From Actinomycetota bacterium (GTDB lineage Bacteria; Actinomycetota; Acidimicrobiia; Acidimicrobiales; JAMDDE01): a stretch of DNA of 64,000 bases. How positions within the stretch are numbered: position 1 is the stretch's first letter; each line of letters starts with the position of its first letter. Shown piece by piece: positions 8,782 through 27,060 of the stretch. Location: NCBI GenBank assembly GCA_023489235.1, contig JAMDDE010000076.1, positions 45,022-109,021 on the forward strand, in the 5' to 3' direction. The notes below the pieces were generated by a model, which worked only from the letters and a program-made list of their open reading frames with translations, ran no database searches and was not told the origin of the DNA. Position numbers and translations under genes: made by a program.

Positions 8782-8783
8782 GG

Positions 8784-9362: not shown

Positions 9363-9371
9363 TGGGTGTTC

Positions 9372-9565: not shown

Positions 9566-9569
9566 CAAC

Positions 9570-11210
9570 TTAGCTTTGTGCAACGATCTTGCCAAACTGC
9601 TGCTTGACTCTAGCTACAACCTCGCCTGTAATTCCTCCGTCGACTTTGATTACCGGCAAGATGGATCGGAATGATCGTTCTCTAAGACATGACCACCACA
9701 CGCCGCTCCCATAGGCTATGTCCTCCAGCAAGCAGGCCACCGAGAAACCCGTCATGCCCTGAGGGGGCAGCTGTGCAAACCAGTTGGCTGAATAACGAAG
9801 TGCTATTGCCCCAATACACATACGACGCAGTTTTGTTGAGAACAGCGACGCCACCAATGTCACTGGCCACCACTCTCTAGTGCATGCTCTACTTAACATA
9901 CCTAAAGCGGAAAACTGAGAGGTTAAAGTCCATCGCGTGGACAACCACCACTTTGGGTCCAGCACTGAATCAGGTATCAAGGAGTGCAAAGTGTTCTTGG
10001 ATGACTTGACGCCCCTTGGAGCAGAGGAGAGCCTGGGAAGCCGTAAAGCGATCCAAACAATGGCTGTCAAGGTCCCTCCTACCCACCAGAGCAACGATCT
10101 TGAAATGCCAATGGCCACCAGACAGGCATCTCGTGGAGACAGTGATACAGGCGATACCGACCATGGATGCTTGTTGTCCAAGGAAGGAGCAGAGGTTCCA
10201 TAGTTGAACCGCTGACGCACGAAGGATCGTACTCCTTTGCGAACTGGATGGATTACCTCACTACTCGGGTCATATCTGACCACCCACCCTCTATCGCCAA
10301 GCCTCCAAAACAAGTCTACGTCTTCGCCGAAACGAAGCGATTCATCAAAACCGCCAACATCCACGAGAGCCTTACGCCTAACTACCACAGCTGCTGCAGG
10401 AACATACGGTACCTGCCCATTTCTTGCCACTACCGCTGGCCACACTCCCATGTCCAGAGGGGACCTCACTGAATCATGCGCTATTAGTGAACGCTGCAGC
10501 CATGAAAGCAACCTATTCCGTGAGCCCCATTCCCCATCTCTGTATTCTCGACCTCGATCCGCAAAGATCGGTTGAACCACTCGACTGGCAACTGCGCCAA
10601 CTCGAGGGTCGTTGAAGTAAGCAGTACAGCGAGCAATCCACCCAGGAGGTGGCATGCAACCTGAATCCAAGAAGGCAATTAGCTCCTCATCCATGGAACG
10701 CCAAGCAAAATTTCTTGCTGCAGCAGGGCCTTTGTTCTCTTCAAGGCGCAAGAGGGAGCCATTGAGCTGCTTTAAGTATTCCTGGATGATTGGATGATCT
10801 GAGAGTCGGTCGTTAGAGCCATCGTCTATTACTGTCACCCTTGTCCCTTCTGGCCTCACTCGAGGTAGCCTGGACAAGGTGGTACGGCATCCTTCAAGGT
10901 CTTGGTATACAGGTATGACTATACCCACTGTGCTGCGTGGTTGATGTTCAGGCAAAGGCAGTGGGTGCGCTATTTGGGCCCGAGACAGGAGACCTCGTAG
11001 GTGATCTTCGAGGTCATTAGGACTTGGATCAGTACCACTTGAACTACCCGACCCAACATCCTCAAAGATTTTTTTGGCAAGAGCAGCCCCTTCATCGGTC
11101 AAGCGAAGGATACGAAGTGGCCTACCGCCAACTAATACCTTTCGTTGTCGATCACTCCAGGTAAAGCGATCTAGGAGCACACTGCCTCGGCTTCCTGCCT
11201 TGGATTCCAA
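9570..11210 (-). CDS. mftF: Mycofactocin system glycosyltransferase (GT2 family, with C-terminal membrane domain)
   Basis: The N-terminus FTWSDRQRKVLVGGRPLRILRLTDEGAAL resembles MftF. The GT2 core shows VIPVY..VTVIDDGSND..GPAAARN..FLDSGC. The C-terminus is hydrophobic, and mft neighbours support the call. Confidence 0.7.
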   Translation of the reverse strand: MESKAGSRGSVLLDRFTWSDRQRKVLVGGRPLRILRLTDEGAALAKKIFEDVGSGSSSGTDPSPNDLEDHLRGLLSRAQIAHPLPLPEHQPRSTVGIVIPVYQDLEGCRTTLSRLPRVRPEGTRVTVIDDGSNDRLSDHPIIQEYLKQLNGSLLRLEENKGPAAARNFAWRSMDEELIAFLDSGCMPPPGWIARCTAYFNDPRVGAVASRVVQPIFADRGREYRDGEWGSRNRLLSWLQRSLIAHDSVRSPLDMGVWPAVVARNGQVPYVPAAAVVVRRKALVDVGGFDESLRFGEDVDLFWRLGDRGWVVRYDPSSEVIHPVRKGVRSFVRQRFNYGTSAPSLDNKHPWSVSPVSLSPRDACLVAIGISRSLLWWVGGTLTAIVWIALRLPRLSSAPRGVKSSKNTLHSLIPDSVLDPKWWLSTRWTLTSQFSALGMLSRACTREWWPVTLVASLFSTKLRRMCIGAIALRYSANWFAQLPPQGMTGFSVACLLEDIAYGSGVWWSCLRERSFRSILPVIKVDGGITGEVVARVKQQFGKIVAQS

Positions 11211-11274
11211 TACTCATGATTTTGATTGACAAGAAATAAAAAATTTCGTACCCACATGTCGAAGCTCTACATGT

Positions 11275-11304
11275 TCAATGATGCATTGAAAATGATGCAT
11301 TGAA
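11275..11304. promoter_or_regulatory. Operator-like tandem repeat between the ADH stop and the mftF start
   Basis: AATGATGCATTGAA occurs twice in tandem (11277-11290 and 11291-11304). The first copy sits inside the inverted repeat TCAATG-ATG-CATTGA (11275-11289). The site is 65-95 nt upstream of the mftF start. Confidence 0.3.
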
Positions 11305-11312
11305 GCTGGCAG

Positions 11313-12425
11313 CTACTCAAAGAGGATAACACCACGAATGTTCTTGCCATCCCGCATGTCTTGATACCCCTGATTCACCTCTGCAAGACTGTACGTCCTG
11401 GTGATCAGCTCATCGAGCTTTAGTTTCCCCTCTCTGTACAGATCGAGGATACGGGGCATGTCATATCGCGGATTGGCCGATCCAAAAATTGATCCGCGTA
11501 AATCCTTTTGGAACAAGGTGAGTTCAAATAACGAGAGTTGAACGTCACTCTGCAGAAATGGAGCTACAGCAGTTACCACGACTCGTCCACCCTTGGATAT
11601 CAAGGACATGGTTGGAGCAATCAAATCTCCACTAGCCACACTGGTCGTTATGATTGCTTTGTCGGCAAGCCTTCCCCAGGTAAGTTGGTTGACCAAGGCA
11701 TAAGCGGCTCCAAGGTCGGGGGCTGAGTGCGTGGCACCGAACACAGAGGCTTGCTCGCGTTTGAACGCCACCGGGTCAACAGCTACGATCCTTTCTGCTC
11801 CGGCAAGACGTGCACCTTGAATGGCATTCATGCCTACTCCTCCACAACCAACTACAACAACTGTATCGCCTGGAGCCACCTCTGCAGCGTATACAGCTGA
11901 TCCATATCCCGTAGTCACTCCACATCCAACCAATGCTGCCTTGTCCAGAGGGATATCGTCATCGATCTTGACCGCAGAGGCTTCGTTGACCACTACGTAT
12001 GGACTAAAAGTGCCGAGCAAGCAGAACGCTCCGGCTCCTTGACCCTTTGCCCTGATGCGATGTATCCCGTTGGAGACGGGGATTCCGGTAACTAGATTGG
12101 CCCCTAGGTCGCATAGGTTTTGATGTCCGCTCGAGCAAGAAGGGCACCGTCCGCATGCTGGTATGAAGGCCAATACCACGTGATCGCCCACGGAGAGGCT
12201 GTTCACCCCTGGACCAACGGCCTCCACTATACCCGCTCCTTCGTGTCCACCTACCATGGGCAGTGGTGCAGGTATGTCTCCAGTCAGCAAGTGCTCATCC
12301 GAGTGGCACAATCCTGAAGCTGCTAGCTTGACCAGCACCTCCCCTTCTACTGGATCATCCAGCTCTACCTCCTCCACGCTCCAGGAGGTGTTCAACTCCC
12401 ACAGCACCGCAGCTTGTGTCCTCAT
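11313..12425 (-). CDS. Zn-dependent alcohol dehydrogenase, NDMA-dependent / mycofactocin-coupled type
   Basis: 370 aa with GLCHSDEHL, GGHEGAGIVEAVGPGV, the structural-zinc Cys cluster CGRCPSCSSGHQNLC and the GCGGVG Rossmann motif. Mycofactocin neighbourhood. Confidence 0.75.
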   Translation of the reverse strand: MRTQAAVLWELNTSWSVEEVELDDPVEGEVLVKLAASGLCHSDEHLLTGDIPAPLPMVGGHEGAGIVEAVGPGVNSLSVGDHVVLAFIPACGRCPSCSSGHQNLCDLGANLVTGIPVSNGIHRIRAKGQGAGAFCLLGTFSPYVVVNEASAVKIDDDIPLDKAALVGCGVTTGYGSAVYAAEVAPGDTVVVVGCGGVGMNAIQGARLAGAERIVAVDPVAFKREQASVFGATHSAPDLGAAYALVNQLTWGRLADKAIITTSVASGDLIAPTMSLISKGGRVVVTAVAPFLQSDVQLSLFELTLFQKDLRGSIFGSANPRYDMPRILDLYREGKLKLDELITRTYSLAEVNQGYQDMRDGKNIRGVILFE

Positions 12426-12683
12426 ATCAGCCTCATCCTTTCTCGGCTCCTAACCAACCAAGAGCTCATCGATTCAATCACTGCCTCGTAATCTTTCCCT
12501 CTGTTTGGGAATTGCCTCCCTGCTACCCGAATACTTCCGTCTGCCCATGAATCATCATCCTTGATTATTGCAAACCTACGCAAGCACTTGCTAACTGATT
12601 GGAAGACATAGATCCTGGCAAGGTACGACGCTTACTCGACCGACCAGGTGCAAGAGATTCGATCGATTAGGGCATTGCTTGGA

Positions 12684-13493
12684 CTATCTAGTTGTAAAGC
12701 CAGCATCTACTACTAAGCAGGTTCCTGTAATGCCACTTGCAGCAGGGCTAGCTAGAAAGACAACTGCAGAAGCAATTTCGTCTGAATCGAGCAACCTACC
12801 GGTCAAATGCTGAGAAGCAAACTCATCTGAATCGGACAGATCATAAATTTTGGCGCTATGTTCCAACATTGGCCCTCTTGTAGATCCAGGGCATACTGCA
12901 TTGACCGTCACCCCTTCTCCTCCTAGCTCAGTAGCCATTGCCTTGATCAAGCCAATGACGCCATGCTTGGCTGCCGCATAAGCAGCAATACGCGGCATAC
13001 CCACTAACCCAGCAGTCGAGGAGATAGCTATGAATCGCCCTTGACGAGGAACGGGACGCCTCAAGATCTCTGGTATCGCTGCCTTTGCTAGGTTGAATAC
13101 CCCGGTCAGGTTTACATCGATCATCGTCTGCCAAGTATTATCCGATGTCTGCCAGACACTTTGGCCTCCAGCGATAGCTCCGGCAGCTGCAATAGCAATG
13201 TCCAGGCCACCAAAACGCTCTCTAGCCATTTGCACCGCCTCATCGAGCGCCTTCGGATCACGCACATCGACAGGAACAGCCACGGCTTGCTTGTTATCAA
13301 GCTCTTCCAGTACCCTACGCAAGTCATCGCTACTGGCCAATGGATACCCTATCTCGGGATCGTCATGACAGATGTCTACGAGGACCAAGTAATACTGCCT
13401 CGATGCCAACTGACGAGCAATAGAAGCACCAATACCTCGTCCAGCTCCAGTTATGATAGCTACGGGTTGCAAAGTATTTTTTTCCGCAAACAA
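12684..13493 (-). CDS. Mycofactocin-coupled SDR family oxidoreductase (carveol-dehydrogenase-like)
   Basis: TGAGRGIG, the family-typical insert VDICHDDPEIGYPLASSDDL, and the YAAAKHG catalytic motif. It is adjacent to mftE and the ADH. Confidence 0.68.
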   Translation of the reverse strand: MFAEKNTLQPVAIITGAGRGIGASIARQLASRQYYLVLVDICHDDPEIGYPLASSDDLRRVLEELDNKQAVAVPVDVRDPKALDEAVQMARERFGGLDIAIAAAGAIAGGQSVWQTSDNTWQTMIDVNLTGVFNLAKAAIPEILRRPVPRQGRFIAISSTAGLVGMPRIAAYAAAKHGVIGLIKAMATELGGEGVTVNAVCPGSTRGPMLEHSAKIYDLSDSDEFASQHLTGRLLDSDEIASAVVFLASPAASGITGTCLVVDAGFTTR

Positions 13494-13557
13494 AGTAATC
13501 CTCCCAACTGTTACAGAGCCAGGCTAGCGATCTGACTGCACCTCACCTGACCATGAG

Positions 13558-14316
13558 CTACTCATGTTCTGGCCATAGTTCAGCTACCGTGGATATCAAG
13601 TCTGCAAGCATAGAGGCCAATATCCGTTTGCCCTCCCCAGCAGAGGAGCCAACCGGATCGCCAAGTACTCCATTGGGTGAAACCGACTTCACTCCGAACA
13701 GTCGCATCTCTCTCCAAATATTCACAAGAGGCTCTTTGCACCCAGCTTCCATTTGGTCGGTTCTAACCAACTCAAGAGCCAACGCCAGCATGATAGAGGT
13801 CTCTATTCGTCCTGCATGCGAATCCCAGGTCTCCCCTTTTCCTCCTGCCATGACCCCCCTTGCACGTGGCCACCATACAACGGTCTTCCTCCCCTCAGCT
13901 GCAAGTCGCTCCTGGGCAGCTAGTAGCGACTCGGCATTGCCTCCGTGTCCGCTAATCAGTACAGCCCCCCTGAACAGAGAGGCAGAGCGAACCAGCTCTA
14001 CAAGAACCAGCTGCAATGCTTCAGCACCCATAGACAGCGTACCGGGGAAGTCCTTGTGCTCCCCGCTCGACCCATAGGGCAAGAGAGGTGCTACTAAAAT
14101 ATCTCTTCGCTGTAGTGCAAGTTGATAGGCCAGGTAGTTTGCCACAACGCTATCGGTACCTAGAGGAAGATGAGGACCATGCTGCTCTGTAGAGCCCAAG
14201 GGGACGACCAACAAGGTGTCTGCTGCTCTTGTCGCAACCTCCGGCCAGGTTAGAGTTTCGAGGCAAAAACCGCTCTCTTGTTGGTCCCATTCCTTCGACT
14301 TCTTCGACAACAGCAT
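13558..14316 (-). CDS. mftE: Creatininase-family peptidase, mycofactocin maturation MftE
   Basis: LLVVPLGSTEQHGPHLPLGTD is the creatininase-fold motif. Size is 252 aa and it sits in mft context. Confidence 0.72.
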   Translation of the reverse strand: MLLSKKSKEWDQQESGFCLETLTWPEVATRAADTLLVVPLGSTEQHGPHLPLGTDSVVANYLAYQLALQRRDILVAPLLPYGSSGEHKDFPGTLSMGAEALQLVLVELVRSASLFRGAVLISGHGGNAESLLAAQERLAAEGRKTVVWWPRARGVMAGGKGETWDSHAGRIETSIMLALALELVRTDQMEAGCKEPLVNIWREMRLFGVKSVSPNGVLGDPVGSSAGEGKRILASMLADLISTVAELWPEHE

Positions 14317-14609
14317 TCAGCTCGAAGACCCAAGGTATACATGATCTGTGCACACGATAAAAAATTTTACATTTATTAGCACTTATCGGTGCGATTGCCG
14401 AAGGCCTGGCGCCGTGGCGAGAACAAGTTCAACGATTCATTGCAGCCGGCCAACGAAGCAAATCCTCTCTTCCAGAGCTACAAGAAGATCAATCTAACAG
14501 TTGGCAGCACAACTACCTGTTGTAGTTGATAACCTCACAGTGTGGCTCAATAAAGATCCAGTAATGGTGGTCGAACAAAGACAAAGATAAAGACAAAATA
14601 TTTTCGGGA

Positions 14610-16604
14610 ATGAGAGTATTGGCCAAAAGAAGCAAAAACGTGCTTTCCTCGCAGTTCCTTCACCCCAATTTAGTGAAGGAACTGCGAGAGCAGACAGTAG
14701 GACTAGAGCGAGAGATAGAGCTCCTATGTGTGACTCTTGCCACTGGTCGCCATGTACTGCTCGAAGGACCACCCGGCACGGGCAAGTCCACCCTGCTCCG
14801 TTTGTTGGCTCAAGCCACGGGTACTGCTTTCGTCTTTGTGGAGGGCAATGCAGAGCTGACCCCGGCAAGACTCATTGGTTACCACGACCCAGCCATGGTC
14901 CTAGAGGTTGGTTACAAGCCAGAAGCCTTCGTTGAAGGCCCTCTCGTCATTGCCATGCAACAAGGAGCCCTTTTGTACATAGAAGAACTCAACAGGGTTC
15001 CGGAAGAGTGTCTAAACACGCTAGTGACCGCTCTAGCCGAAGGCGAGATATATGTTCCGAGGGTTGGCCGCATCGAAGCAGCTGATGGGTTTCGTATGGT
15101 AGCAGCCATGAACCCATTCGATGCAGTGGGGACCTCTAGGATCAGTCAAGCCGTATACGACCGTATGTGCCGAATAGCCATAGGCTACCAGGACTTCTCC
15201 GGTGAATGTGCAATAGTCGACAGACTGACCGGTCATTCCGATGAGATATCTGAAATTGCAGTAGAGCTCGTACGAGCTACTAGATCGCATCGAGACATCG
15301 TAACCGGCTCTTCTGTTCGTGGAGCTATAGACCTTACTCACCTCGCATTTGGATTGGCAAAGTTGCGTGGGGAGAGTGTACCCAGCCGCACTAGTCTGTT
15401 GGATGCCACATTGGTCGCAGTATCCGGCAGGATCAGAGTGGATGACTCGGCTCAACGTACCCCAGAGGAGATCCTTACCGAACTATTCGAAGAGGTACTG
15501 TCGAGACACTTTCAAAATACAGATAGTGAAGGTACATATCTTGAAGACCCAGGTAAACCCGCAGATGATCCAGATTTTTCCGCTACTCCGGAGGATGATC
15601 CAAGGAGATCGAACTGGGGAAAAGAGAATGGCCAGAGAATCGGTGATGCAACTACCGGACTCTCTGGCCAAGGAAAGCGTATCCTCGAGGGAAGATCAGC
15701 TGAAGCTGCTATATCACAAGCAGCTAGACGTACGGTGAGCAGGAAGTACTTAGCACGACGTTTTTCTGAATTCAGCTCACTCAGCCCTCGAGTAGGAACA
15801 CTCGACGAAGATGCTGCTGTAACCATGATCAAGAACGATTCGACCAGGGGAATCGAGTTGCTCTGCGAGATGGCCAATGCCACAGATCGAATGCTCGCCA
15901 AAGCAGCACGATCTCTAGCCACGCGCATCTTCGTAGACATGAGTAGGTCGGGTCATGACAGATGTCGTGGGCTGCATCGGATCGATCGAGACCACCATAG
16001 CTTAACGGGCGATCTCGACCTGGAAGGCACTCTCGAAACCACAGGAGGATTGAGACCAAAGTCTTCAGAAGACCTTCTCACCCTCTCCTGGCACGCCAGT
16101 CGTAAGGCGCTGTGTCTATTACTCGACAGAAGTGGTTCAATGGAAGGAAATCCTCTTGCACTTGCTTGTTTGGCTACAGCTGCCACTCTTACAGCTGGAA
16201 GGTCAAGAGCAGATGTAGCAGTGATCACATTTTCCAGTGAAGCTATAGTGGTCGTCCCCATGGGATCGAACTATTCAGTCCAATCGGCAGTAAACTCCTT
16301 GCTCTCGTTACGAGGAAGCGGGACAACTGATATCTCCAACGCATTCGCCGCTGCTGAGTTGCAGTTGAGTCGTAGTCCTTGCAAAACCAAGGAGGTAGTG
16401 CTGATCAGCGACTGTGTTGCCACTGCTGGTAACAGTCCTTTGGACTCGCTGAGAGGCATAGAGCTGCTTCATGTAATAAATACCAGCTACGACGAGGATG
16501 CACAGAACATGGGAAAGCTACTGGCAAAGCGAGGAAAGGGCAACTTTCAAGTAGCGACCGATCTTTCGAAGCTAGCCACTTCATTGCAGTCCATTCTTCT
16601 ATGA
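14610..16604 (+). CDS. Fusion protein: MoxR-like AAA+ ATPase (N-terminal) + acidic/Pro-rich linker + von Willebrand factor A domain (C-terminal)
   Basis: Walker A LLEGPPGTGKST, Walker B-like ALLYIEELNR and AAMNPFD place the N-terminus in the MoxR family. The C-terminus has CLLLDRSGSM (MIDAS DxSxS) followed by GSGTTD and VVLISD. The overall architecture resembles BchD/ChlD or CobS-CobT. Confidence 0.8.
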   Translation: MRVLAKRSKNVLSSQFLHPNLVKELREQTVGLEREIELLCVTLATGRHVLLEGPPGTGKSTLLRLLAQATGTAFVFVEGNAELTPARLIGYHDPAMVLEVGYKPEAFVEGPLVIAMQQGALLYIEELNRVPEECLNTLVTALAEGEIYVPRVGRIEAADGFRMVAAMNPFDAVGTSRISQAVYDRMCRIAIGYQDFSGECAIVDRLTGHSDEISEIAVELVRATRSHRDIVTGSSVRGAIDLTHLAFGLAKLRGESVPSRTSLLDATLVAVSGRIRVDDSAQRTPEEILTELFEEVLSRHFQNTDSEGTYLEDPGKPADDPDFSATPEDDPRRSNWGKENGQRIGDATTGLSGQGKRILEGRSAEAAISQAARRTVSRKYLARRFSEFSSLSPRVGTLDEDAAVTMIKNDSTRGIELLCEMANATDRMLAKAARSLATRIFVDMSRSGHDRCRGLHRIDRDHHSLTGDLDLEGTLETTGGLRPKSSEDLLTLSWHASRKALCLLLDRSGSMEGNPLALACLATAATLTAGRSRADVAVITFSSEAIVVVPMGSNYSVQSAVNSLLSLRGSGTTDISNAFAAAELQLSRSPCKTKEVVLISDCVATAGNSPLDSLRGIELLHVINTSYDEDAQNMGKLLAKRGKGNFQVATDLSKLATSLQSILL

Positions 16605-16768
16605 GTCCATGAGGATCGCTTGGCCCAAGATCGCGCCCCGCAAGTCCCTGGCTTGCATCCATGAGAAGAGCAAGATCAGTGTCAGCCAGTGCCTAGGATG
16701 GAGATTAGCAGTGATCGGTGTTACACTTAGGCTACTTCACGGTCAAGTCAGCAATTTAGCTAATCAAT

Positions 16769-17083
16769 ATGATAAATGAAAACCTTCTACTGGATCAGCA
16801 CCTGACCCTGAGCCCAACGGTATCCACCAGGAAAGAGCGTTTCGGTGCTTTGGTCTACAACCATGAAAACCGCAAATTGAGTTTTATTCGTTCCGAGGAA
16901 CTCCTCTGCATCATAGAGGATCTGCGACAAGGTGCCTCTGTAAAAGATGCTCTCGTTGCCAACAGGGTAGACCCTTCTAGATGGCCAACATTCGTAGCTA
17001 GTCTATCGACTTTGCTTGCACAAGGTTTCCTGGTCTCTGCTGGTGGAAGCAGTTCGTCACAGGCTGTTGTTCACACTAGTTAG
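16769..17083 (+). CDS. mftB: Mycofactocin biosynthesis chaperone (RRE protein) MftB
   Basis: 104 aa. The stretch ERFGALVYNHENRKLSFIRSEELLCIIEDL matches the MftB signature as I remember it. It lies directly upstream of mftA/mftC. Confidence 0.82.
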   Translation: MINENLLLDQHLTLSPTVSTRKERFGALVYNHENRKLSFIRSEELLCIIEDLRQGASVKDALVANRVDPSRWPTFVASLSTLLAQGFLVSAGGSSSSQAVVHTS

Positions 17084-17117
17084 CAGCTTTGTTGTTGCAC
17101 GAGTAGCTGTATATGCC

Positions 17118-17288
17118 ATGATTGAGACCATGACTGATAAGACCACTGCTACTAATACAAAGCTTCCTACTCATAGGACAGACAACGACCCGCAGCCCAC
17201 CTCGTCTGTTGCCGAGAATGCCCAATTGATAGCAGAGGAAATCCTCATAGAAGAGGTATCCATAGACGGCATGTGCGGAGTTTACTAA
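17118..17288 (+). CDS. mftA: Mycofactocin precursor peptide MftA
   Basis: The C-terminus EEILIEEVSIDGMCGVY-stop carries the canonical IDGMCGVY core. The track ORF (17016-) overlaps mftB, so I chose the first in-frame ATG after the mftB stop (17118). ATG at 17130 is also possible. Confidence 0.88.
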   Translation: MIETMTDKTTATNTKLPTHRTDNDPQPTSSVAENAQLIAEEILIEEVSIDGMCGVY

Positions 17289-17296
17289 GTTACGTC

Positions 17297-18457: not shown

Positions 18458-20556
18458 CCAGTGATCCTTCTCTGAGACTCTGTCAAGCCTTTCGCATAAG
18501 AGGCCTAGAGGCATCTTCTAGAGTGGTATTCGGCCCTCACGAAACCAATCTCGGAGAGGAGCGGAGATTCTCGCAAAGGCACGTAGCGTACTATCGCAGA
18601 CGTGCTGCAGGTGGAGCAGGTATCATTGTCACCGAAGAAGCGGCTGTGAATCCCAGTGACTGGCCCTACGAGCGCTCCCCTTTAGCTAGCCTGTGCGAAC
18701 GAGGGTGGAGACAGATCGCCCGTGCAGTGCACTCCGAGGGAGCATTGGCCATAGCTGCTCTCGGTCATAGTGGGGGGCAGGGAAGTTCAGCATACTCTCA
18801 AACAGCCCTACTTGCTCCATCGAGAGTGCCTGAGGTGGTAAGCCGGGAGATTCCCAAGGCCATGGAGTCAAGGGATATAGAATCAACCATCAACTCCTTC
18901 GCACGTTCCGCAATATCTGCAATAACGGCAGGCATGGATGGAGTTGAAATCAATGCTGGTCAGTACAGCCTGGTAAGGCAGTTCTTGTCTGGGCTGACCA
19001 ATCACCGAGGCGATGCTTACGGTAGCAATCGTCTTCTATTTCTCAAAGAAATTCTCCAAGCCATTCGGAGCAGAACGCCAAATGCTATCCTTGGGCTTCG
19101 CCTTTGCATAGATGAACTGGCTCCATGGGCTGGCATTACTCCAGAGATAGCGGTGGAATACATCCTCGGACTGGCCAATTCGATCGACTACATCACTTTG
19201 GTACGAGGATCCATCTACAGTGCTTGGGCAACTCGACCGGACTCGCATGTGGAACCAGGATTCAATCTCCCAGCAACTCGGATGATCAAGGAAGCATTGA
19301 AAGCTCATGACCTCTCGGTAACTCTCATTGCCCAAGGTTCCCTAGTGGACCCTCGCCAGGCCGAAGATGCTATTGCCGATGGGGTTGTAGACGCAGTGGA
19401 GATGACTCGCGCTCAGATTGCAGAGCCCGACTTGGTCAGCCTCCTCAGGTTGCACGGCCTTCGAGCTCGATACCGTCCTTGTATTCTTTGCAACCAAAAC
19501 TGTCAGGTTCGAGATCCTCGTAATCCCGTCATAGGATGCATCGGCAATCCTGAAGCAGGATATGAAGGCGCAGATGAGCTTCCGGGAAACTTTCTCGACA
19601 CCAAGCCCCTCTCCAAGGTTTTTGACGATCAGCCAGAGAATGAGGATAGCAGCAGAGAACCAACTGGGACTGAAAGGTCTGATAGAGCTGGATTCCGAGA
19701 GTCACGGTCGTCTCCTCCCGTAATAGTCATAGGTGGAGGACCCGCCGGTCTGGAGTGCGCTCGTACCGCTGCAACAAGGGGATTCCATGTGCAACTCTAC
19801 GAACGTTCCCACAGGTTGGGAGGGGCATTACGATTCATCTCCAATGCCGATGGCAAGCAACGTTTCTCTCTTTTGGCCGACTGGCTAGAGGGCGAATGCA
19901 TGAGCTTGGGCGTAGAGGTGATACTTGGAGTTGAGGCGACTCCTGAGCACCTGAGTGCTCCATCCCGTGCTGTTGTCATCTGCACTGGTTCTCGACCAGG
20001 AAGACTGACATTCCCCATTTCAGCTGATGGAGTCGTGATCGATCCAGCTGAGGCATTGAACAACATCGGTAGTATCGGAGTTCCAGATGGATCTCACCTA
20101 GTAGCATGGGATCCACTGGGAGGCTATCTGGTCCTTCCTCTGGTGGAGACATTGGCTCGACGGGGATACGAGCTCACTGTAGTTACGCCCGATCTAATCG
20201 TAGGTACTCAGTTGTCTAGAACCGGTGATCTCGTTCCCCTTCAGTCGCGTCTAGCTCACTTGGACGTACGTATGCTCAAGCACCATCGGATACGTGAGGT
20301 ATCAGCTGACGAGGTTGTAGTAGAGGACATCTTCACTAATAGAAGGTCGTCCATCTCTGCTGCTGGGATAATCAACGGGGGCCCCCGTTTACCCGATACC
20401 GATCTGTGGAATGCCACCAATCGCAGCTACGACCGTATTGGGGATGCCCTCGCTCCTCGCAGCATAGCTGAAGCTATATACGAAGGACGTCGTAAGGCGC
20501 TCGAACTGCCACTTTCTATATCTACTATCGGAAGCACCGTATCATCTGGAAGTTAA
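18454..20556 (+). CDS. FadH/OYE-family flavoprotein (2,4-dienoyl-CoA-reductase-like), mycofactocin-system type, copy 1
   Basis: An N-terminal OYE TIM barrel, the 4Fe-4S motif CILCNQNCQV..GCIGNP, and a C-terminal dinucleotide fold VIVIGGGPAGLECA. GTG at 18454 overlaps the mftC stop (GTGA); the track start is TTG at 18445. Confidence 0.72.
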   Translation: MTSDPSLRLCQAFRIRGLEASSRVVFGPHETNLGEERRFSQRHVAYYRRRAAGGAGIIVTEEAAVNPSDWPYERSPLASLCERGWRQIARAVHSEGALAIAALGHSGGQGSSAYSQTALLAPSRVPEVVSREIPKAMESRDIESTINSFARSAISAITAGMDGVEINAGQYSLVRQFLSGLTNHRGDAYGSNRLLFLKEILQAIRSRTPNAILGLRLCIDELAPWAGITPEIAVEYILGLANSIDYITLVRGSIYSAWATRPDSHVEPGFNLPATRMIKEALKAHDLSVTLIAQGSLVDPRQAEDAIADGVVDAVEMTRAQIAEPDLVSLLRLHGLRARYRPCILCNQNCQVRDPRNPVIGCIGNPEAGYEGADELPGNFLDTKPLSKVFDDQPENEDSSREPTGTERSDRAGFRESRSSPPVIVIGGGPAGLECARTAATRGFHVQLYERSHRLGGALRFISNADGKQRFSLLADWLEGECMSLGVEVILGVEATPEHLSAPSRAVVICTGSRPGRLTFPISADGVVIDPAEALNNIGSIGVPDGSHLVAWDPLGGYLVLPLVETLARRGYELTVVTPDLIVGTQLSRTGDLVPLQSRLAHLDVRMLKHHRIREVSADEVVVEDIFTNRRSSISAAGIINGGPRLPDTDLWNATNRSYDRIGDALAPRSIAEAIYEGRRKALELPLSISTIGSTVSSGS

Positions 20557-22679
20557 TGACCATGTCACGATATCCCATTTTGTTCTCACCAATACGCCTT
20601 GGTCCGGTTAAGGTCGAAAATCGAATCGTCTTCTCTGCACATCTGACCAACTACGCCTCCAATGGGTTGCCTACAGCTCAGCATGCTGCTTACTATGCCT
20701 CTAGAGCTAGAGGGGGCGCGGGACTCATCATTACTGAAGAACACTCGGTGCATCCTACTGATTGGCCCTACGAGAAGATGATCCATGCTTGGAAGCCAGA
20801 GGTCGTATCCGGCTACCGCCTTATCACCGATGCAGTTCACCAATACGGCACCCCCATATTTGCTCAAATCAACCATAATGGCGGGCAAGGCAGTGGCATG
20901 TATTCACGACTGCCTCTATGGGCACCTTCCCCTGTCGCCGACCCTCTTTTCAGGGAGGTTCCCCTTGAGATAGATGAAGAGAAAATTGAGGAAGTTATCG
21001 CTTCTTACGCCGATGTTGCCCTCCGGTGTAAACAGGGAGGTTTCGATGGAGTGGAACTACAGTGTTCTCACTCCTCAATAGTCAGGCAATTTCTCTCCCC
21101 TGCTACTAATTTGCGCTCCGACCAATACGGAGGCGACCTCGAGAATAGAGCCAGATTGTTATTGGAAATAACCGAAGCAGTTCGGCATGCAGTTGGAGAA
21201 GAAATGGCCATCGGAGTACGACTGTGTGGAGACGAACTCATCGAGGGTGGAACGGGCATAACAGAGGCTGTAGAAGTAGCCAAGATGATCGAGCAACAAG
21301 GTGTAGTGGACTACATAAACACCTCGATAGGAGTAGCTACAGCCACGCTATTCACCATTGAAGCTTCCATGCAGTTCCCTCCTGGGTATGCCCTTTTCAT
21401 TCCTAGTGCCATCAGATACGCCACCAACCTTCCTGTCGTTGGCGTTGGGCGTATCAAGGATCCACAACAAGCAGAGAAAGCACTTTCCGAAGGTTACTGT
21501 GACTTAGTAGGGATGGTGCGAGCTCAGATAGCCGACCCAGACTTTGCTAACAAGGCAGCGAACGGTACCCCAGAGAAGATCAGGCTATGCCTCTCTTGCA
21601 ACCAAGAGTGCGTTGGAAGAATGGGGTTGAATCGTTGGTTGGGCTGCATCGAGAATCCTCGAACAGGCAAGGAAAGCCATTTGCCGCCTCGTCCTGCTCG
21701 TACCCGTAAAAGAGTTCTCGTCATAGGAGCAGGGCCTGGAGGACTTCAAACAGCCATAGCCGCATCTTCAAGAGGGCATGAGGTTCTGGTTCTAGAGGCT
21801 ACCCCCCATCCAGGAGGACAGATACGCTTAGCAGCAAGCATTCCGCACAGAGCAGAGCTCTTCGATCTTGTTCGCAATCAGATGAATACCATCGCCGAAC
21901 TGGGGGTGAAGATCCTCTATGAGACACCAGGTACTCTGAGGAGCATAAAGGAGATCGATCCTTCGGTTGTTGTAGTAGCCACCGGATCTATTCCACAAAG
22001 ACCATCTTGGCTTCCTGCTCATCTCTACTTTCAAGATCATATTCAAGCTGGTTCGGCAACTTCCTTGTCACATCCCCACCCAGTTACCACTTTCAGTGAG
22101 CAACAATTACCAGGGGTCAGGGAGCTCTATCCGCCTTCATCCGGTGGGCCGGACAAGTTAGATGCTGATAGTGTCGAAGAGCCGATCATGGCAAGTAGAA
22201 CAGTTGCAGTGGATGTCCGCCATGTACTAGAAGGTATGGCTACTCCAAGAGGTCGTGTCGTGATAGTGGACGATCTCGGTTTTCATCAAGCAACCAGCGT
22301 TGCTGAACTCCTTGCCGATCGAGGGTGCTCAGTTACGGTTACGACATCTGCCATGATAGTTGGGCAGGACTTAGGGATCACGCTAGACCTGGAAGGCTGG
22401 AATATGAGAGCAGCTGCCAAAGGCATCACTCAACTCACAGAGCTGGTTCCCGAAGGGATATCCGAAGGAGAGATCGTTTTCTTGCATCATCCAAGTGGGA
22501 ACAGACTAGTTCTTCCTGCAGATTGGGTAGTTCTTGCTGTTCCACCAGAACCAAGTGAGAGCCTTTACTTCGAACTGATAGAGGAAGGTATCGAAACCTA
22601 TAGGGTAGGTGATGCAGTAGCTCCTCGAAAAGCCCACGCAGCAGTTCTCGAAGGCAATGCCGTGGGAGAGATGTTGTAG
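20556..22679 (+). CDS. FadH/OYE-family flavoprotein, mycofactocin-system type, copy 2
   Basis: Same architecture as copy 1: GLIITEEHSVHP, CLSCNQECVG..GCIENP and VLVIGAGPGGLQTA. Its ATG overlaps the upstream stop (TAATG). Confidence 0.72.
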   Translation: MTMSRYPILFSPIRLGPVKVENRIVFSAHLTNYASNGLPTAQHAAYYASRARGGAGLIITEEHSVHPTDWPYEKMIHAWKPEVVSGYRLITDAVHQYGTPIFAQINHNGGQGSGMYSRLPLWAPSPVADPLFREVPLEIDEEKIEEVIASYADVALRCKQGGFDGVELQCSHSSIVRQFLSPATNLRSDQYGGDLENRARLLLEITEAVRHAVGEEMAIGVRLCGDELIEGGTGITEAVEVAKMIEQQGVVDYINTSIGVATATLFTIEASMQFPPGYALFIPSAIRYATNLPVVGVGRIKDPQQAEKALSEGYCDLVGMVRAQIADPDFANKAANGTPEKIRLCLSCNQECVGRMGLNRWLGCIENPRTGKESHLPPRPARTRKRVLVIGAGPGGLQTAIAASSRGHEVLVLEATPHPGGQIRLAASIPHRAELFDLVRNQMNTIAELGVKILYETPGTLRSIKEIDPSVVVVATGSIPQRPSWLPAHLYFQDHIQAGSATSLSHPHPVTTFSEQQLPGVRELYPPSSGGPDKLDADSVEEPIMASRTVAVDVRHVLEGMATPRGRVVIVDDLGFHQATSVAELLADRGCSVTVTTSAMIVGQDLGITLDLEGWNMRAAAKGITQLTELVPEGISEGEIVFLHHPSGNRLVLPADWVVLAVPPEPSESLYFELIEEGIETYRVGDAVAPRKAHAAVLEGNAVGEML

Positions 22680-22683
22680 AGCC

Positions 22684-23649
22684 ATGGACAAGGGAACGAT
22701 AGCAGTCATACCTGTAAGAAAAGGGTTTGCTGATAACACGGTGAGCGAGGCCATTGCTGAGGCTGGCGGTAGAGCTATCCTGATTGGCGAGGAAACGGAG
22801 AGAGCAGCCTCTTTCCTTGAGACACCTTCCCTGCAGCTGCTTTGTCTGGAAGCTGTTGCTTTCTCCCCCGCAAGGTGGTCACTGTTGCTGAGAAGTTACC
22901 TTGAAGAACAGGATCTGGTGATCATTCCTGCTACTCCAGACGGTAGAGACCTGGCTCCACGTATTGCATACGAACTTAAATGGCCACTGATCACCGGAGC
23001 TATAAAGGTAGGTCCTGGATATGCTTATACCGTCCGTCATCCCCGAGAAACAATGTTGGAGTACCGTTTCGATCGACCAGTCGTAGTCACTATTCTGCCT
23101 GGCGCAAGAGGGCTTGAACCTCTACCGTCAGGGGCGGGCCATCCAAGTATCACTGTGTCGGACTCCACAATCGCTACCGAGTCATCAGAGGAAGGGTCAG
23201 ACGCGCTAGTACTGGACATACTGTCCAGTACACCAGGTGAGCTCAACTTGACAGAGGCTGAAAAAATTATTGCTGGCGGAGCAGGATTGGGAAGCAAGGA
23301 CGCTTTCGAGCTTCTCGAATTGCTTGCCGCTCGATTAGGTGCAGCAGCTGGAGCAACCAGAGTGGCTACGGATGCAGGGTGGTTGTCACATGATCGCCAA
23401 ATAGGCAGTACCGGTGTTACCGTAAGGCCATATTGGTACGTAGCACTAGGCATCTCTGGCGCCAGCCAACATCTAGCTGGGGTAGTTGACCCTGAACATG
23501 TAGCTGCAGTGAATCTGGATCCTAGTTGCCCCATGATGGCCCTGGCAGAATTGCCCATAGTAACCGATGCGCCAAAGGTTCTCGATGAGATGGTCAAAAT
23601 GCTTTCAGCCAACCGTCTCTCGACTGAGTTCATGAATCAACAGGTATAG
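22684..23649 (+). CDS. etfA: Electron transfer flavoprotein alpha subunit (EtfA/FixB-like)
   Basis: IIAGGAGLGSKDAFELLELLAARLGAAAGATRVATDAGW..QIGSTGVTVRP..YVALGISGASQH is the C-terminal FAD-binding signature. The ATG at 22684 lies 5 nt after the upstream stop. Confidence 0.82.
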   Translation: MDKGTIAVIPVRKGFADNTVSEAIAEAGGRAILIGEETERAASFLETPSLQLLCLEAVAFSPARWSLLLRSYLEEQDLVIIPATPDGRDLAPRIAYELKWPLITGAIKVGPGYAYTVRHPRETMLEYRFDRPVVVTILPGARGLEPLPSGAGHPSITVSDSTIATESSEEGSDALVLDILSSTPGELNLTEAEKIIAGGAGLGSKDAFELLELLAARLGAAAGATRVATDAGWLSHDRQIGSTGVTVRPYWYVALGISGASQHLAGVVDPEHVAAVNLDPSCPMMALAELPIVTDAPKVLDEMVKMLSANRLSTEFMNQQV

Positions 23650-23661
23650 GAGAGTCGCCAG

Positions 23662-24963
23662 GTGAGCGTGACCACTCAAGCAGTCGTTGTCGGTGCTGGG
23701 CCTGCGGGTTCAGCGGCAGCATTAGTGCTTGCTCGAGCTGGTTTCGAGGTAATCCTGTTGGAACGAGGTCCCTATCCAGGATCCAAGAACGTATACGGTG
23801 GAGTAGTTTACGGACGCATCCTCGATGAGTTGATACCGCAGTGGTGGGAGAACGCTCCTATCCAAAGATGGATCACTCGTAGATCCACTATGGTGTTGAC
23901 TGATTCTCAAGCGCTGAGCGTGGACTTTCGAACACAACATTGGAAGAGGCAGCCGTTCAATGGTGCAACTGCCTACAGATCAGAGTTTGATCCGTGGTTG
24001 GCCCATCAGGCAGAAAAAGATGGTGCCAAACTGCTTTGCTCTACTACTGCCGTTGGTCTTCTCAAGGAGAACGGGAAAGTAGTTGGTGTCCGCACTGACA
24101 GGCCAAATGGTGATCTTTACGCAAAGCTGGTGGTGGCGTGTGACGGGGTCAATTCATTGTTAGCAAAAGAAGCTGGCCTCTATGAAGATCTCGATGAAAG
24201 CAACTTCACCCTGGGCGTAAAGGAAGTCTGGCACCTAGGGAAGAAAGAGATAGACAGTCGCTTCGGCCTGAGTACAAATGAAGGGGTTGACATAGAGATA
24301 CTGGGAGGTACCAGCCCCATAGCTGGAGGAGGTTTTATATACACGAACTTGGATACCCTTGCGATTGGTGCAGTCCTTCGTTTGACGGATCTTGCTGCCT
24401 CTCGTAAACGGCCGGAGGAAATCGTAGCGAAGCTCCGTTCTCATCCTGCTATCGCTCCATGGTTCATTGGGAGCCACCTTGTAGAGTACTCTGCTCACTT
24501 GATACCTGAGGGAGGATATCACTCCATGCCCAGGCTGGTTGCTGATGGTCTACTCGTAGCTGGTGATGCAGCAGGGATGTGCTTGGCCACAGGTGTATGG
24601 CTGGAGGGGATCAACTACGCTATTGGCTCTGGAGCTATAGCAGGAAAGGTAGCTGCGGCTGCTCTGGCGCGAGGCGACTACTCTTCCTCCATGCTCTCGA
24701 AGTATGAATCCGAGTTGCACCATAGCTTCGTCATGAAGAACCACAAGAGGCTTCGTCACCTTCCTCATCTGGTCTTGTCAGAGCGGCTGCAATCACGTTA
24801 TCCCCAAGTACTCTGTAACGTAGTTGACAACATGTTCACGGTACGCGATCCACTTCCCAAACCGCGACTTTCTCAGCTGGTACGAGCAGAGTTGAAGAAA
24901 GCAGGAGTGCGGGGCACAGAGGTGCTCGCCGACCTTCTAAGTATTCTCCGGGATCTCCAATGA
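23662..24963 (+). CDS. fixC: FAD-dependent ETF:quinone-type oxidoreductase FixC
   Basis: VVVGAGPAGSAAALVLARAG..ERGPYPGSKNVYGG, a size of 433 aa, and location next to a FixX-type ferredoxin. Confidence 0.82.
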   Translation: MSVTTQAVVVGAGPAGSAAALVLARAGFEVILLERGPYPGSKNVYGGVVYGRILDELIPQWWENAPIQRWITRRSTMVLTDSQALSVDFRTQHWKRQPFNGATAYRSEFDPWLAHQAEKDGAKLLCSTTAVGLLKENGKVVGVRTDRPNGDLYAKLVVACDGVNSLLAKEAGLYEDLDESNFTLGVKEVWHLGKKEIDSRFGLSTNEGVDIEILGGTSPIAGGGFIYTNLDTLAIGAVLRLTDLAASRKRPEEIVAKLRSHPAIAPWFIGSHLVEYSAHLIPEGGYHSMPRLVADGLLVAGDAAGMCLATGVWLEGINYAIGSGAIAGKVAAAALARGDYSSSMLSKYESELHHSFVMKNHKRLRHLPHLVLSERLQSRYPQVLCNVVDNMFTVRDPLPKPRLSQLVRAELKKAGVRGTEVLADLLSILRDLQ

Positions 24964-25042
24964 CCTCGATGAAAAAGACCCACGCTCGCCGTTACCTCAA
25001 GCTCTCACACCAGATCCGTCTACAGTACCAGAGGGATCTCCA

Positions 25043-25498
25043 ATGAAAAAAGCCTACGCTCGCCGTTACCCTTCGGTAAAGAGTAGTCTTAGCAAACACA
25101 ACTCGACGAGACGCAATGAACCAACATATAACAGGTCATTGTTATATGACAGACCACTACCCTACGAAGAACTTGACTGGGCAGAGAGTTCCCCACTACC
25201 AAACGATCAGCTGTTGCATCCAGTTGCCTTCGAGGATCGTATGAACAGCGTACGCTTCGTCGTGCACGAACGCCCCCACATCACCATAGACAACGATGCT
25301 TGTAGGGGATGCACCACTAAAGCATGCGTGACTGCTTGCCCGGCAGGCCTATTTGTGCCTACAGCAGACGGTGGCATCCTCTTCAACTACGAGCAGTGCT
25401 TCGAATGCGGGACGTGCTACATGGTCTGCAACAACAAAGGAGCAATTAACTGGAATTACCCTATAGGGGGGTATGGAGTGGAGTTCCGATATGCCTGA
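25043..25498 (+). CDS. fixX: FixX-type ferredoxin-like protein with an unusual basic N-terminal extension of about 55 aa
   Basis: The C-terminal ~95 aa align by eye to FixX: RPHITID..CRGCTTKACVTACPAG..CFECGTCYMVC..GGYGVEFRY. The true start is uncertain. Confidence 0.75.
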   Translation: MKKAYARRYPSVKSSLSKHNSTRRNEPTYNRSLLYDRPLPYEELDWAESSPLPNDQLLHPVAFEDRMNSVRFVVHERPHITIDNDACRGCTTKACVTACPAGLFVPTADGGILFNYEQCFECGTCYMVCNNKGAINWNYPIGGYGVEFRYA

Positions 25499-26450
25499 CC
25501 ACGCTAAACTCCTAAGAACCTTGGGAACAGAAACCTCTTGCTTGACCATAGGAGTAGCCATGAAAGGGGATGAAACGGCTACGATGAACTATCCTCTCAC
25601 CGATAGTGGTGATCATACCAAGCGGCATGCAGCAATTCCTTTCTCCGATCAAGCAGCCTTGGAGGTTGCCCTTTCGCTCAAGAACGACCTAGGTGCCAAG
25701 GTGCTATGTTGTTCCGTCGGTTCCATACAAGTCAGATCCATGCTTTCTTCAACGTTAGCCCTCGGAGCCGACCAAGCTGTACTAATTATGAGCCCGAGCG
25801 GTCTCTCCAATGTGGAAATAGCAGCCAACCTTGCTGCTACCTTGGTCAATTGCTCTTTCGTGTTCTGTGGAAGCTCCAGTAATGATGCCCTCACCCCCGC
25901 AGTACCTGGACTGCTGGCAGCAATGCTCGAAGCCCAACAGGCTCTAGGTGTATCAACCATAACTGTAAGCTCTGGGAGTACCACAGCAGAAGCAAACAGC
26001 CAAGAGCACCAGACTGAAGACTCAGATGCTCCCGATCGTCCCCCTTCGCTTCTAGTAGAGCGAAAGTTTGCCCGTGGAAAACGTGAACTCCTCAGGTTGA
26101 CCCCTAGAGGAGTCATATCGGTGGATCCCTATGCGGCAAAGCTGCGCAGAGCCTCTCTGGATGCAGCTCTTGCCAGAAGTGAAGCGGAGGTGGTAGTGAG
26201 ACCAACTGTGTCCTTGCCCACTCAGTGGCAATCCATGGTGCTCCACCCAATTGGATCTTCTCCTTATCGACCACGGACCAAGCTCCTGCAAGGACCTGAT
26301 CAAAGTCTTCCTGTCCAAGAGCGCATCGCTGTGCTACTAACAGGAGGAAATCCTGCTAGACGAGCCGAGCCATTGTACTTGGATCCCAAATCAGCTGCCC
26401 AACTACTGCTTGAGACCATATCCGCTTGGGATCGGAGTGAACGAAGATGA
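25491..26450 (+). CDS. etfB: Electron transfer flavoprotein beta subunit (EtfB/FixA-like), divergent and long
   Basis: IPFSDQAALEVALSLKNDLGAKVLCCSVGS..LSSTLALGADQAVLI matches the EtfB core pattern. ATG at 25491 has a GGAG 7 nt upstream and overlaps the fixX stop by 8 nt. The track start is 25473. Confidence 0.7.
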   Translation: MPDHAKLLRTLGTETSCLTIGVAMKGDETATMNYPLTDSGDHTKRHAAIPFSDQAALEVALSLKNDLGAKVLCCSVGSIQVRSMLSSTLALGADQAVLIMSPSGLSNVEIAANLAATLVNCSFVFCGSSSNDALTPAVPGLLAAMLEAQQALGVSTITVSSGSTTAEANSQEHQTEDSDAPDRPPSLLVERKFARGKRELLRLTPRGVISVDPYAAKLRRASLDAALARSEAEVVVRPTVSLPTQWQSMVLHPIGSSPYRPRTKLLQGPDQSLPVQERIAVLLTGGNPARRAEPLYLDPKSAAQLLLETISAWDRSERR

Positions 26451-27047: not shown

Positions 27048-27060
27048 GGCGCAGAATACA

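Follow-up and report, generated by a model that had tools for sequence, protein, structure and literature searches.

A divergent mycofactocin cluster without mftD and mftG carries a coupled oxidoreductase, electron-transfer flavoprotein, and FixCX block at the mftD position

Results

Gene content of the mycofactocin island

We analyzed a 64,000-nucleotide (nt) stretch of contig JAMDDE010000076.1 (positions 45,022 to 109,021 of the forward strand) from assembly GCA_023489235.1, an actinomycetotal genome of the order Acidimicrobiales. We refer to this whole stretch, which has a G+C content of ∼52%, as the window, and all coordinates are given within it. The window contains a mycofactocin (mft) island in which the biosynthetic genes are followed by a block of six genes that encode two old yellow enzyme (OYE)-type oxidoreductases (OYE1 and OYE2), the two subunits of an electron-transfer flavoprotein (ETF), and a FixC flavoprotein and FixX ferredoxin. 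The open reading frame (ORF) listing and translations place nine same-strand genes at 16769 to 26450 (+), in the order mftB, mftA, mftC, OYE1, OYE2, etfA, fixC, fixX, and etfB. The genes for mftF, an NDMA (N,N-dimethyl-4-nitrosoaniline)-type zinc alcohol dehydrogenase (Zn-ADH), a short-chain dehydrogenase/reductase (SDR), and mftE form an arm that diverges from this operon. A first-pass annotation of the same DNA had described this layout, and direct reading of the sequence found all nine genes and every junction that it quoted; the A-C-X-B order of the ETF and Fix genes is likewise present, and it recurs in relatives.

Proteins were identified with NCBIfam profile models and their curated cut-offs (scores are in bits, each followed by its cut-off). 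The peptide maturation set of mycofactocin biosynthesis is present above cut-off: MftB, the peptide chaperone (16769 to 17083, +; TIGR03967, 73.5 versus 33); MftA, the precursor peptide (17118 to 17288, +; TIGR03969, 52.6 versus 25); MftC, the radical SAM/SPASM maturase of 386 amino acids (aa) (17297 to 18457, +; TIGR03962, 536 versus 265; called start ATG at 17297, longest ORF from GTG at 17273); MftE, a creatininase-family peptidyl-dipeptidase (13558 to 14316, −; TIGR03964, 247 versus 172); and MftF, the mycofactocin glycosyltransferase (9570 to 11210, −; TIGR03965, 324 versus 280; the span is that of the longest ORF, and gene callers give 536 aa). MftA ends in IDGMCGVY, as first reported, within the C-terminus ...EEVSIDGMCGVY; no other MftA occurs in the window, and this one is long (56 aa). 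The other two genes of the divergent arm, also named above cut-off, encode an NDMA-dependent (nicotinoprotein) Zn-ADH, a predicted mycofactocin client (11313 to 12425, −; TIGR03989, 585 versus 440), and a mycofactocin-coupled SDR oxidoreductase (12684 to 13493, −; TIGR04504 SDR_subfam_2, 349 versus 250).

Within the block, mycofactocin-specific models recognize the mycofactocin-system FadH/OYE oxidoreductases 1 (18454 to 20556, +; TIGR03996, 685 versus 628) and 2 (20556 to 22679, +; TIGR03997, 919 versus 793) and the mycofactocin-associated ETF alpha subunit, EtfA (22684 to 23649, +; NF038209, 326 versus 240). The belief stated in the first-pass annotation that pipelines name mycofactocin-associated ETF subunits is thus correct (NF038209 and TIGR04503), and the outcome that it named as refuting, OYE proteins that score as ordinary FadH, is not borne out by these scores. 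Its proposed NCBIfam scoring was positive for MftA, MftB, MftC, MftE, MftF, the ADH, the SDR, both OYE proteins, and EtfA and fell short for EtfB, a divergent ETF beta subunit (25491 to 26450, +; TIGR04503 mft_etfB, 132 versus 200). No mycofactocin-specific NCBIfam model matched FixC or FixX, which matched generic models only, under their cut-offs. FixC, an FAD protein homologous to ETF:quinone oxidoreductases (23662 to 24963, +), aligned with Thermotoga maritima FixC (7KOE_C, 258 bits) and scored ∼320 with PRK10015/FixC, and the FixX-type ferredoxin with two 4-Cys motifs (25043 to 25498, +) scored 69.5 with PRK15449 FixX over residues 60 to 150.

The six-gene block OYE1-OYE2-EtfA-FixC-FixX-EtfB is translationally coupled. 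Three junctions are additional to those quoted in the first-pass annotation, namely fixC to fixX (below), mftB to mftA (34 nt), and mftA to mftC (8 nt). The mftC stop and the GTG start of OYE1 share GTGA at 18454 to 18457 (−4 nt), and OYE1 and OYE2 meet in TAATG at 20554 to 20558 (−1 nt). The next gaps are 4 nt (OYE2 to etfA, ATG at 22684), 12 nt (etfA to fixC, GTG at 23662), and 79 nt (fixC to fixX), and fixX and etfB overlap as ATG..TGA at 25491 to 25498 (−8 nt). A tandem duplication of ∼80 nt (24950 to 25070, +) extends across the stop codon of fixC and the start codon of fixX. It is marked by two direct repeats, one of 14 nt at 100% identity with copies 83 nt apart and one of 28 nt at 89% identity with copies 74 nt apart (GGGATCTCCAATGA, present twice, and ATGAAAAAGACCCACGCTCGCCGTTACC versus ATGAAAAAAGCCTACGCTCGCCGTTACC). 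This duplication appears to have turned an ancestral ATGA overlap into the sole sizeable gap of the OYE1-etfB block. Prediction on the plus strand from 16769 to 26450 gave no promoter-like sites, and 6 terminator-like sites versus 9.6 expected from shuffled sequence, both being weak tests. The identical OYE2 protein was found on 24 metagenome contigs, and the gene order around OYE2 was unchanged in the six places read. The mftB-mftA-mftC order of the window was not the common one; mftA-mftB-mftC was found in 23/23 scorable species loci and in 9/9 annotated plasmid records read.

Conservation of the block and its restriction to mft loci

We aligned 22 EtfA homologues and scanned one genome per species, in which at least 471 species had a relative of the mycofactocin-type EtfA. 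Locus counts were taken from the best 80 of these at least 471 species loci, with gene content scored by tblastn with the window proteins. The 80 loci come mostly from Acidimicrobiia metagenome-assembled genomes and also from Amycolatopsis, Saccharopolyspora, and Solirubrobacterales. Genes for mycofactocin biosynthesis were present in 65 of the 80, the rest being contigs cut short, except for locus L015. In every locus that reached at least 3 kb past etfA (65/65), etfA was followed by fixC and then fixX, and the A-C-X order was kept in 68 of the 69 independent species loci holding both fixC and fixX, such that the EtfA-FixC-FixX arrangement is more than chance. The divergent EtfB was recovered in 59 loci, and OYE2 was found in 63 of the 80.

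The arrangement extends beyond these loci. Five Streptomyces plasmid loci carry mftA-B-C-OYE1-OYE2-etfA, then genes annotated as "FAD-dependent oxidoreductase" and "4Fe-4S dicluster," then etfB, (SDR), and mftF/mftE. On plasmid pHTUR01 of Haloterrigena turkmenica (85566 to 91264), a single OYE-like gene is followed by etfA-fixC-fixX-etfB, diverged in sequence, beside mftA-B2-C-F; the genes of this module have generic names only in RefSeq.

To gauge specificity, we surveyed 72,556 plasmids. The mycofactocin-type EtfA occurred in exactly 6 of these records. The same six held OYE2 at >50% identity (next matches, ≤34%) and FixC at 56 to 59% identity (next, ≤37.5%, to rhizobial FixC and Escherichia coli YdiS), and FixC thus forms its own clade. 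Rather than being equally common without mftC, a prospect raised by the first-pass annotation, the clades of the block were accompanied by mftC in all six records. The EtfA, OYE2, and FixC clades are confined to mft loci.

Some further genes recur around the block. In 22 Acidimicrobiia loci without an adjacent OYE2, a gene for a DedA/UptA-family membrane protein lies directly upstream of etfA (e.g., L025:9173-9943). A comparison of ORFs of at least 200 aa outside known matches also gave two families downstream of mftF, in ∼16 loci each (L065:16019-17011 and L082:18162-19382), one alanine-racemase N-terminal-like and one a multi-pass membrane protein, neither matched by NCBIfam.

Absence of mftD and mftG

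MftD is the premycofactocin synthase, which oxidatively deaminates the 3-amino-pyrrolidinone precursor AHDP to the redox-active keto-amide. In the 64-kb window, we found neither a motif nor a tblastn match to MftD (TIGR03966, FMN_dh, SNHGGNNLD motif), and neither a GMC signature nor a tblastn match to MftG (GMC family; TIGR03970 and relatives). The motif search covered the 80 species loci and the window (∼1.35 Mb), and tblastn, for which three genuine MftD and two genuine MftG sequences served as queries, covered these and the five Streptomyces plasmid loci; MftD and MftG were absent from all of them within up to 10 kb around the clusters, and positive controls were detected. One ORF with an LldD-like motif (L015:10045-11154) was considered as a possible MftD and proved spurious, with no NCBIfam match.

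The six-gene block occupies the position of mftD, directly after mftC, a point that is missing from the first-pass annotation, as is the absence of mftD. Conversely, the block is missing from all four mftD-bearing records (Tsukamurella, Mycobacterium chubuense, Streptomyces NBC_00080, and T. roseum), and Streptomyces contains clusters of both types. Within the loci examined, the block and mftD/mftG are mutually exclusive. We therefore call the locus a "type II" mycofactocin cluster, in which MftB, MftA, MftC, MftE, MftF, and client dehydrogenases are present without MftD and MftG.

These absences have parallels in the literature. MftD was described as present in "most but not all" species (Haft 2011), and Saccharopolyspora mft clusters were reported without mftD but with TIGR03997 (BGCFlow, PMC11162802). 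Saccharopolyspora erythraea and Amycolatopsis methanolica nevertheless make mycofactocins, and both oxidized and reduced methylmycofactocin were detected in S. erythraea (PMC9679996). The first-pass annotation had called the re-oxidation of mycofactocinol uncharacterized, which does not hold for Mycobacterium smegmatis, where MftG is the mycofactocinol dehydrogenase that links mycofactocin to respiration (eLife 2025, PMC11778925). It does hold for the remainder, since MftG was found in 75% of mftC genomes and its substitute in the other ∼25% was left open (PMC11778925). In the table of that study, the lineages without MftG include Amycolatopsis (9/10), Saccharopolyspora rows, Ilumatobacter, Iamia, Aquihabitans, Frankia, Geobacter, and haloarchaea (PMC11778925), and these largely coincide with lineages that carry the block.

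Sequence features of OYE1 and OYE2

Both ∼700-aa proteins have an OYE (FMN) barrel, a CxxCxxxC(x11)C [4Fe-4S] motif, and one GxGxxG, as the first-pass annotation had it. The motifs read CILCNQNCQVRDPRNPVIGC and GGGPAG in OYE1 and CLSCNQECVGRMGLNRWLGC and GAGPGG in OYE2. Both are members of the superfamily of FadH, NCR, trimethylamine dehydrogenase (TMADH), and histamine dehydrogenase (HADH). The relatives of OYE1 in the PDB are FadH, HADH, and NCR (∼120 bits), and the best match of OYE2 is FadH (1PS9, 276 bits). Among 36 OYE1 and 50 OYE2 sequences, each protein had one invariant GxGxxG and no second one was present; the NADPH site of FadH is thus missing in both. The last domain of OYE2 was most similar to histamine dehydrogenase (28 bits, versus 4.8 with FadH).

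The active sites differ from those of the characterized relatives as well. Tyr166 of FadH aligns with Ser in OYE2, and Glu164 of FadH aligns with His. A Ser stands in place of the proton-donating Tyr of OYE, and Gln/His replaces the His/His pair that binds carbonyls. Also gone is the Cys through which TMADH holds its FMN covalently: TMADH "vpHCigag" aligns with "saHLtnya" of OYE2, so that Cys30 is Leu, and OYE1 has HETN. Given the missing FMN Cys, the Tyr-to-Ser change, and the absence of the NADPH motif, the proteins are neither FadH nor TMADH-type members. The OYE1 and OYE2 families have distinct active-site motifs, each conserved separately. Judged by these motifs, both proteins appear, like TMADH, to require an external protein as electron acceptor, and gene adjacency suggests ETF as that partner. 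Database names for OYE relatives vary, with some reading 2,4-dienoyl-CoA reductase and others DgcA or N-methylproline demethylase.

Sequence features of the ETF, FixC, and FixX

All four subunits of an EtfABCX system are encoded (EtfA, EtfB, FixC, and a FixX with two [4Fe-4S] motifs), with the generic FixC and FixX models below their equivalog cut-offs. FixC most closely resembles its T. maritima counterpart (7KOE_C), the arm through which EtfABCX reduces quinone. FixX carries a basic N-terminal extension of ∼60 aa (25043 to 25240) that is missing from the 95- to 103-aa FixX of the Streptomyces clusters; the extension may be real, since AGAGGGA, a Shine-Dalgarno-like sequence, lies ahead of its ATG (25043).

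We asked whether the EtfB zipper assigns the ETF to a known class. Bifurcating EtfBs have DGDTAQ and canonical ones DDDxNQ (PMC8958531). In an alignment against 4KPU_B and 5OL2_B, 59 mycofactocin-type EtfBs read DRG[ST]GS and the window EtfB DALTPA, with DNDMNA in Paracoccus 1EFP_B. The zipper fits neither the bifurcating nor the canonical type, and the mycofactocin ETF is a class of its own. The best PDB match of EtfB is 5OW0_B, a non-bifurcating ETF, at a low 37 bits. The loci share no conserved gene for a ferredoxin or flavodoxin acceptor.

Comparison with known systems

The mycobacterial cluster mftR/mftA-B-C-D-E-F-G (Mycobacterium tuberculosis Rv0691A-Rv0697, M. smegmatis), a type also seen in Tsukamurella, M. 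chubuense, and Streptomyces NBC_00080, has in common with the window MftA with IDGMCGVY, MftB, MftC, MftE, MftF, the NDMA-type ADH, and the SDR. The window differs in lacking MftD, MftG, and mftR, in having six extra genes at the mftD site, and in the order B-A-C rather than A-B-C. NCBI (PGAP) also annotates type II clusters, in Streptomyces plasmids and in Amycolatopsis/Saccharopolyspora genomes, and these have the same gene set, the order OYE1-OYE2-A-C-X-B, and overlapping or nearly abutting genes. Protein identity to these is only 38 to 60%, however, and in the window mftE-SDR-ADH-mftF are inverted into the divergent arm, the MoxR/VWA gene described below is fused, EtfB is deviant, and the island lies inside a cobalamin cluster.

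Among characterized enzymes, TMADH with its ETF (Methylophilus methylotrophus; 2TMD, 1O94) and histamine dehydrogenase (3K30) have in common with the two OYE proteins an FMN TIM barrel, CxxCxxxC...C, one ADP/FAD-type GxGxxG, and a third domain that lacks an NAD(P)H motif. ETF is the acceptor of TMADH in a solved complex (1O94), and in the window ETF is encoded beside the OYE genes; OYE2 differs in having Leu for TMADH Cys30, and identity is low (∼170 to 200 bits). E. coli FadH (1PS9) and OYE2 share the FMN barrel and [4Fe-4S] motif and differ in the second GxGxxG, which is absent from OYE2, and at residues 166 and 164. The EtfABCX/FixABCX systems (T. maritima 7KOE; Azotobacter and Rhodopseudomonas Fix) have the same four subunits, whereas the window has the order A-C-X-B, an EtfB motif other than DGDTAQ, and a module coupled to OYE-type dehydrogenases.

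Genes surrounding the block

A fused gene for a MoxR-type AAA+ ATPase and a VWA protein (14610 to 16604, +; Pfam bpMoxR, AAA_3, AAA_5, and VWA_CoxE) lies 164 nt upstream of mftB, and no mycofactocin-specific NCBIfam model matched its product. Homologues at 45 to 58% identity, fused or as two genes, adjoin the gene for the NDMA-type ADH in another 11 mft loci without cob genes, and separate VWA and AAA genes adjoin the Haloterrigena module. The protein probably has an accessory or assembly function in clusters of this type and may act as a chaperone in assembling the ADH or the OYE/ETF complex. We also considered that it might be a CobS/CobT-like partner of the neighboring CobN. We rejected this as the main explanation because of the homologues in the 11 mft loci without cob genes and beside the Haloterrigena module; a dual role in the window is possible.

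The mft island splits a cobalamin cluster into a left part at 942 to 9606 (−) and a right part at 26523 to 28464 (+). The left flank holds cobN-cobQ-cobD-cbiB-cobS-cobU behind a cobalamin riboswitch (9407 to 9606, 91.6 bits), which shares 37 nt with the end of the mftF ORF, and on the right cobO-cobB start 72 nt after etfB on the same strand. Past cobB and a gene for 5-formyl-THF (tetrahydrofolate) cyclo-ligase is a dynamin-like GTPase (29448 to 31247, +; ∼577 to 599 aa). This is followed by a second NDMA-dependent Zn-ADH, likely a further mycofactocin client (31291 to 32403, −; TIGR03989, 561 versus 440), in a region (31291 to 33448, −) 5 kb past the island and outside the span of the first-pass annotation. 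Beside this second ADH is a gene for a mycothiol conjugate amidase, which is Mca-like and slightly below its cut-off at 260 bits. This gene and the closest relatives of the window proteins assign the organism to the Actinomycetota.

Discussion

The link of a genuine mycofactocin cluster to an OYE pair and EtfA-FixC-FixX-EtfB, as claimed in the first-pass annotation, is supported here. It is important to note that the association of mft, OYE, and ETF is already encoded in curated family names and RefSeq annotation, of which the window is a divergent member; a literature search combining mycofactocin with ETF, FixC, or bifurcation found nothing. The gene identities, the kept gene order, the exclusive occurrence with mft, the exclusion of mftD and mftG, and the lack of an NADPH motif are observed directly. 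Taken with these, the block is very probably dedicated to mycofactocin and a replacement for at least one of MftD and MftG. The fuller view, which we favor, that it stands in for MftD and probably MftG and passes electrons via ETF and FixCX to quinone, has in our estimate slightly less than an even chance.

A bolder form of this view, with a probability of roughly 0.4, is that the block is an O2-independent, two-enzyme replacement of both MftD and MftG. OYE1 and OYE2, as FMN/[4Fe-4S] paralogues, would both work at C3 in the pyrrolidinone core of mycofactocin, where AHDP and mycofactocinol differ only in NH2 versus OH. One OYE would be an AHDP:ETF dehydrogenase that oxidizes the amine and makes premycofactocin during biosynthesis; the other, or both, would oxidize the mycofactocinol alcohol during turnover as a mycofactocinol:ETF dehydrogenase. 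Because these enzymes have no NAD(P)H site, we propose that electrons would be handed from FMN through [4Fe-4S] to the dedicated ETF, as in TMADH, and then through FixC/FixX, acting as an ETF:quinone oxidoreductase, to menaquinone. The midpoint potential of premycofactocin is about −255 mV (PMC8406134), and transfer to menaquinone would thus be downhill. The result would be an undescribed mycofactocinol:quinone entry to respiration, used by the ∼25% without MftG (including Acidimicrobiia, many Pseudonocardiales and Streptomyces, and haloarchaea). Since the block sits in the mftD position and is mutually exclusive with mftD, at least one OYE is more likely to be a biosynthetic AHDP dehydrogenase than both are to be purely recycling. 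What we infer from these patterns is which substrates are used, in which direction electrons flow, that quinone accepts them, and how OYE1 and OYE2 share the work.

The electron path put forward in the first-pass annotation, itself conjectural, ran from dehydrogenase to mycofactocin, the OYE pair, ETF, FixCX, and quinone. If this were the whole function, the block would be an analogue of MftG only, and the MftD step would be encoded at an unlinked site. A four-gene chain of ETF and quinone reductase does fit catabolic flux better than trace biosynthesis, genera without MftG coincide with genera that carry the block, and the potentials permit the transfer. We nevertheless consider this unlikely, as the block lies exactly at the mftD site and is perfectly anticorrelated with mftD and only imperfectly with mftG (T. 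roseum), and Saccharopolyspora, with clusters lacking mftD, still makes the keto-amide cofactor. Somewhat less likely again is the converse, an OYE1/OYE2 heterodimer acting solely as an O2-independent AHDP dehydrogenase in place of MftD, with ETF/FixCX as its electron sink and recycling carried out elsewhere. The strict exclusion of mftD at the same position speaks for it, and so does a superfamily that holds amine-oxidizing, ETF-coupled enzymes, with relatives annotated as DgcA or N-methylproline demethylase. The MftD flavoenzyme is O2 dependent, and members of the OYE families are also found in anaerobic organisms that possess mft clusters. Yet six coupled genes would be a heavy cost for cofactor-level flux, two distinct and separately conserved active sites suggest two substrates, and the same lineages lack MftG and would still need a recycling enzyme.

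Two other explanations were considered. Electrons might flow in reverse, from NADH or quinol through a FixABCX-like system into OYE enzymes that reduce mycofactocin or another substrate, or electrons from mycofactocinol might be split between quinone and ferredoxin. In line with this, FixC most resembles its counterpart in T. maritima EtfABCX, a bifurcating complex, and YdiS is among its next-best relatives after the mft clade; E. coli systems of the FixABCX/YdiQRST type presumably supply reductases with electrons. The EtfB zipper, however, is neither DGDTAQ nor DDDxNQ, and the loci conserve no acceptor gene for ferredoxin or flavodoxin, such that the bifurcating variant, which the first-pass annotation had also entertained, gained nothing from the analysis, and we regard this whole group of explanations as improbable. 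The chance is very slight indeed that the genes are incidental neighbors, the OYE proteins being ordinary 2,4-dienoyl-CoA or enoate reductases and ETF/FixCX serving fatty acid oxidation. FadH is the best single PDB match of OYE2, at 276 bits, and some database names read 2,4-dienoyl-CoA reductase, but the clades are restricted to mft loci, the NADPH GxGxxG of FadH is absent, the Tyr proton donor is Ser, and the start of OYE1 overlaps the stop of mftC.

Several observations weigh against the view that we favor. OYE1 was found in only 34 of the 80 loci, 11 loci have no OYE within 10 kb, and OYE2 does not adjoin etfA in about half of the Acidimicrobiia loci; the scarcity of OYE1 and the loci without OYE mean that the two-OYE pairing is not universal. 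The absence from either OYE of the covalent-FMN Cys of TMADH and HADH places both outside that group of amine dehydrogenases. The EtfB of the window scored below the TIGR04503 cut-off and lacks CGDxSxDRG[ST]GS, the nucleotide-site motif that is otherwise nearly invariant in the family, reading CGSSSNDALTPA instead with a low-complexity insert, yet TIGR04503 is its best-matching family and its gene is in the conserved position. The absence of MftD and MftG applies to up to 10 kb around the clusters, the rest of the genomes not having been searched, and an unlinked LldD-family enzyme could perform the MftD step. Moreover, the T. roseum locus has MftD and lacks both MftG and the block, and recycling can thus apparently be solved by other routes. 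Finally, the roles given here to all six block proteins are predicted ones.

In actinobacteria, M. tuberculosis among them, mycofactocin serves the oxidation of alcohols and other substrates. The block supplies concrete candidates for two gaps in its biology, the substitute for MftG and the substitute for MftD. Because culturable hosts (Streptomyces, S. erythraea, and Amycolatopsis) carry it, these candidates are testable. If the proposed role is confirmed, rules for detecting biosynthetic gene clusters that now demand MftD would have to be corrected, and the block would bring with it a new class of substrate for ETF-coupled enzymes and a new quinone-reducing entry to the respiratory chain.

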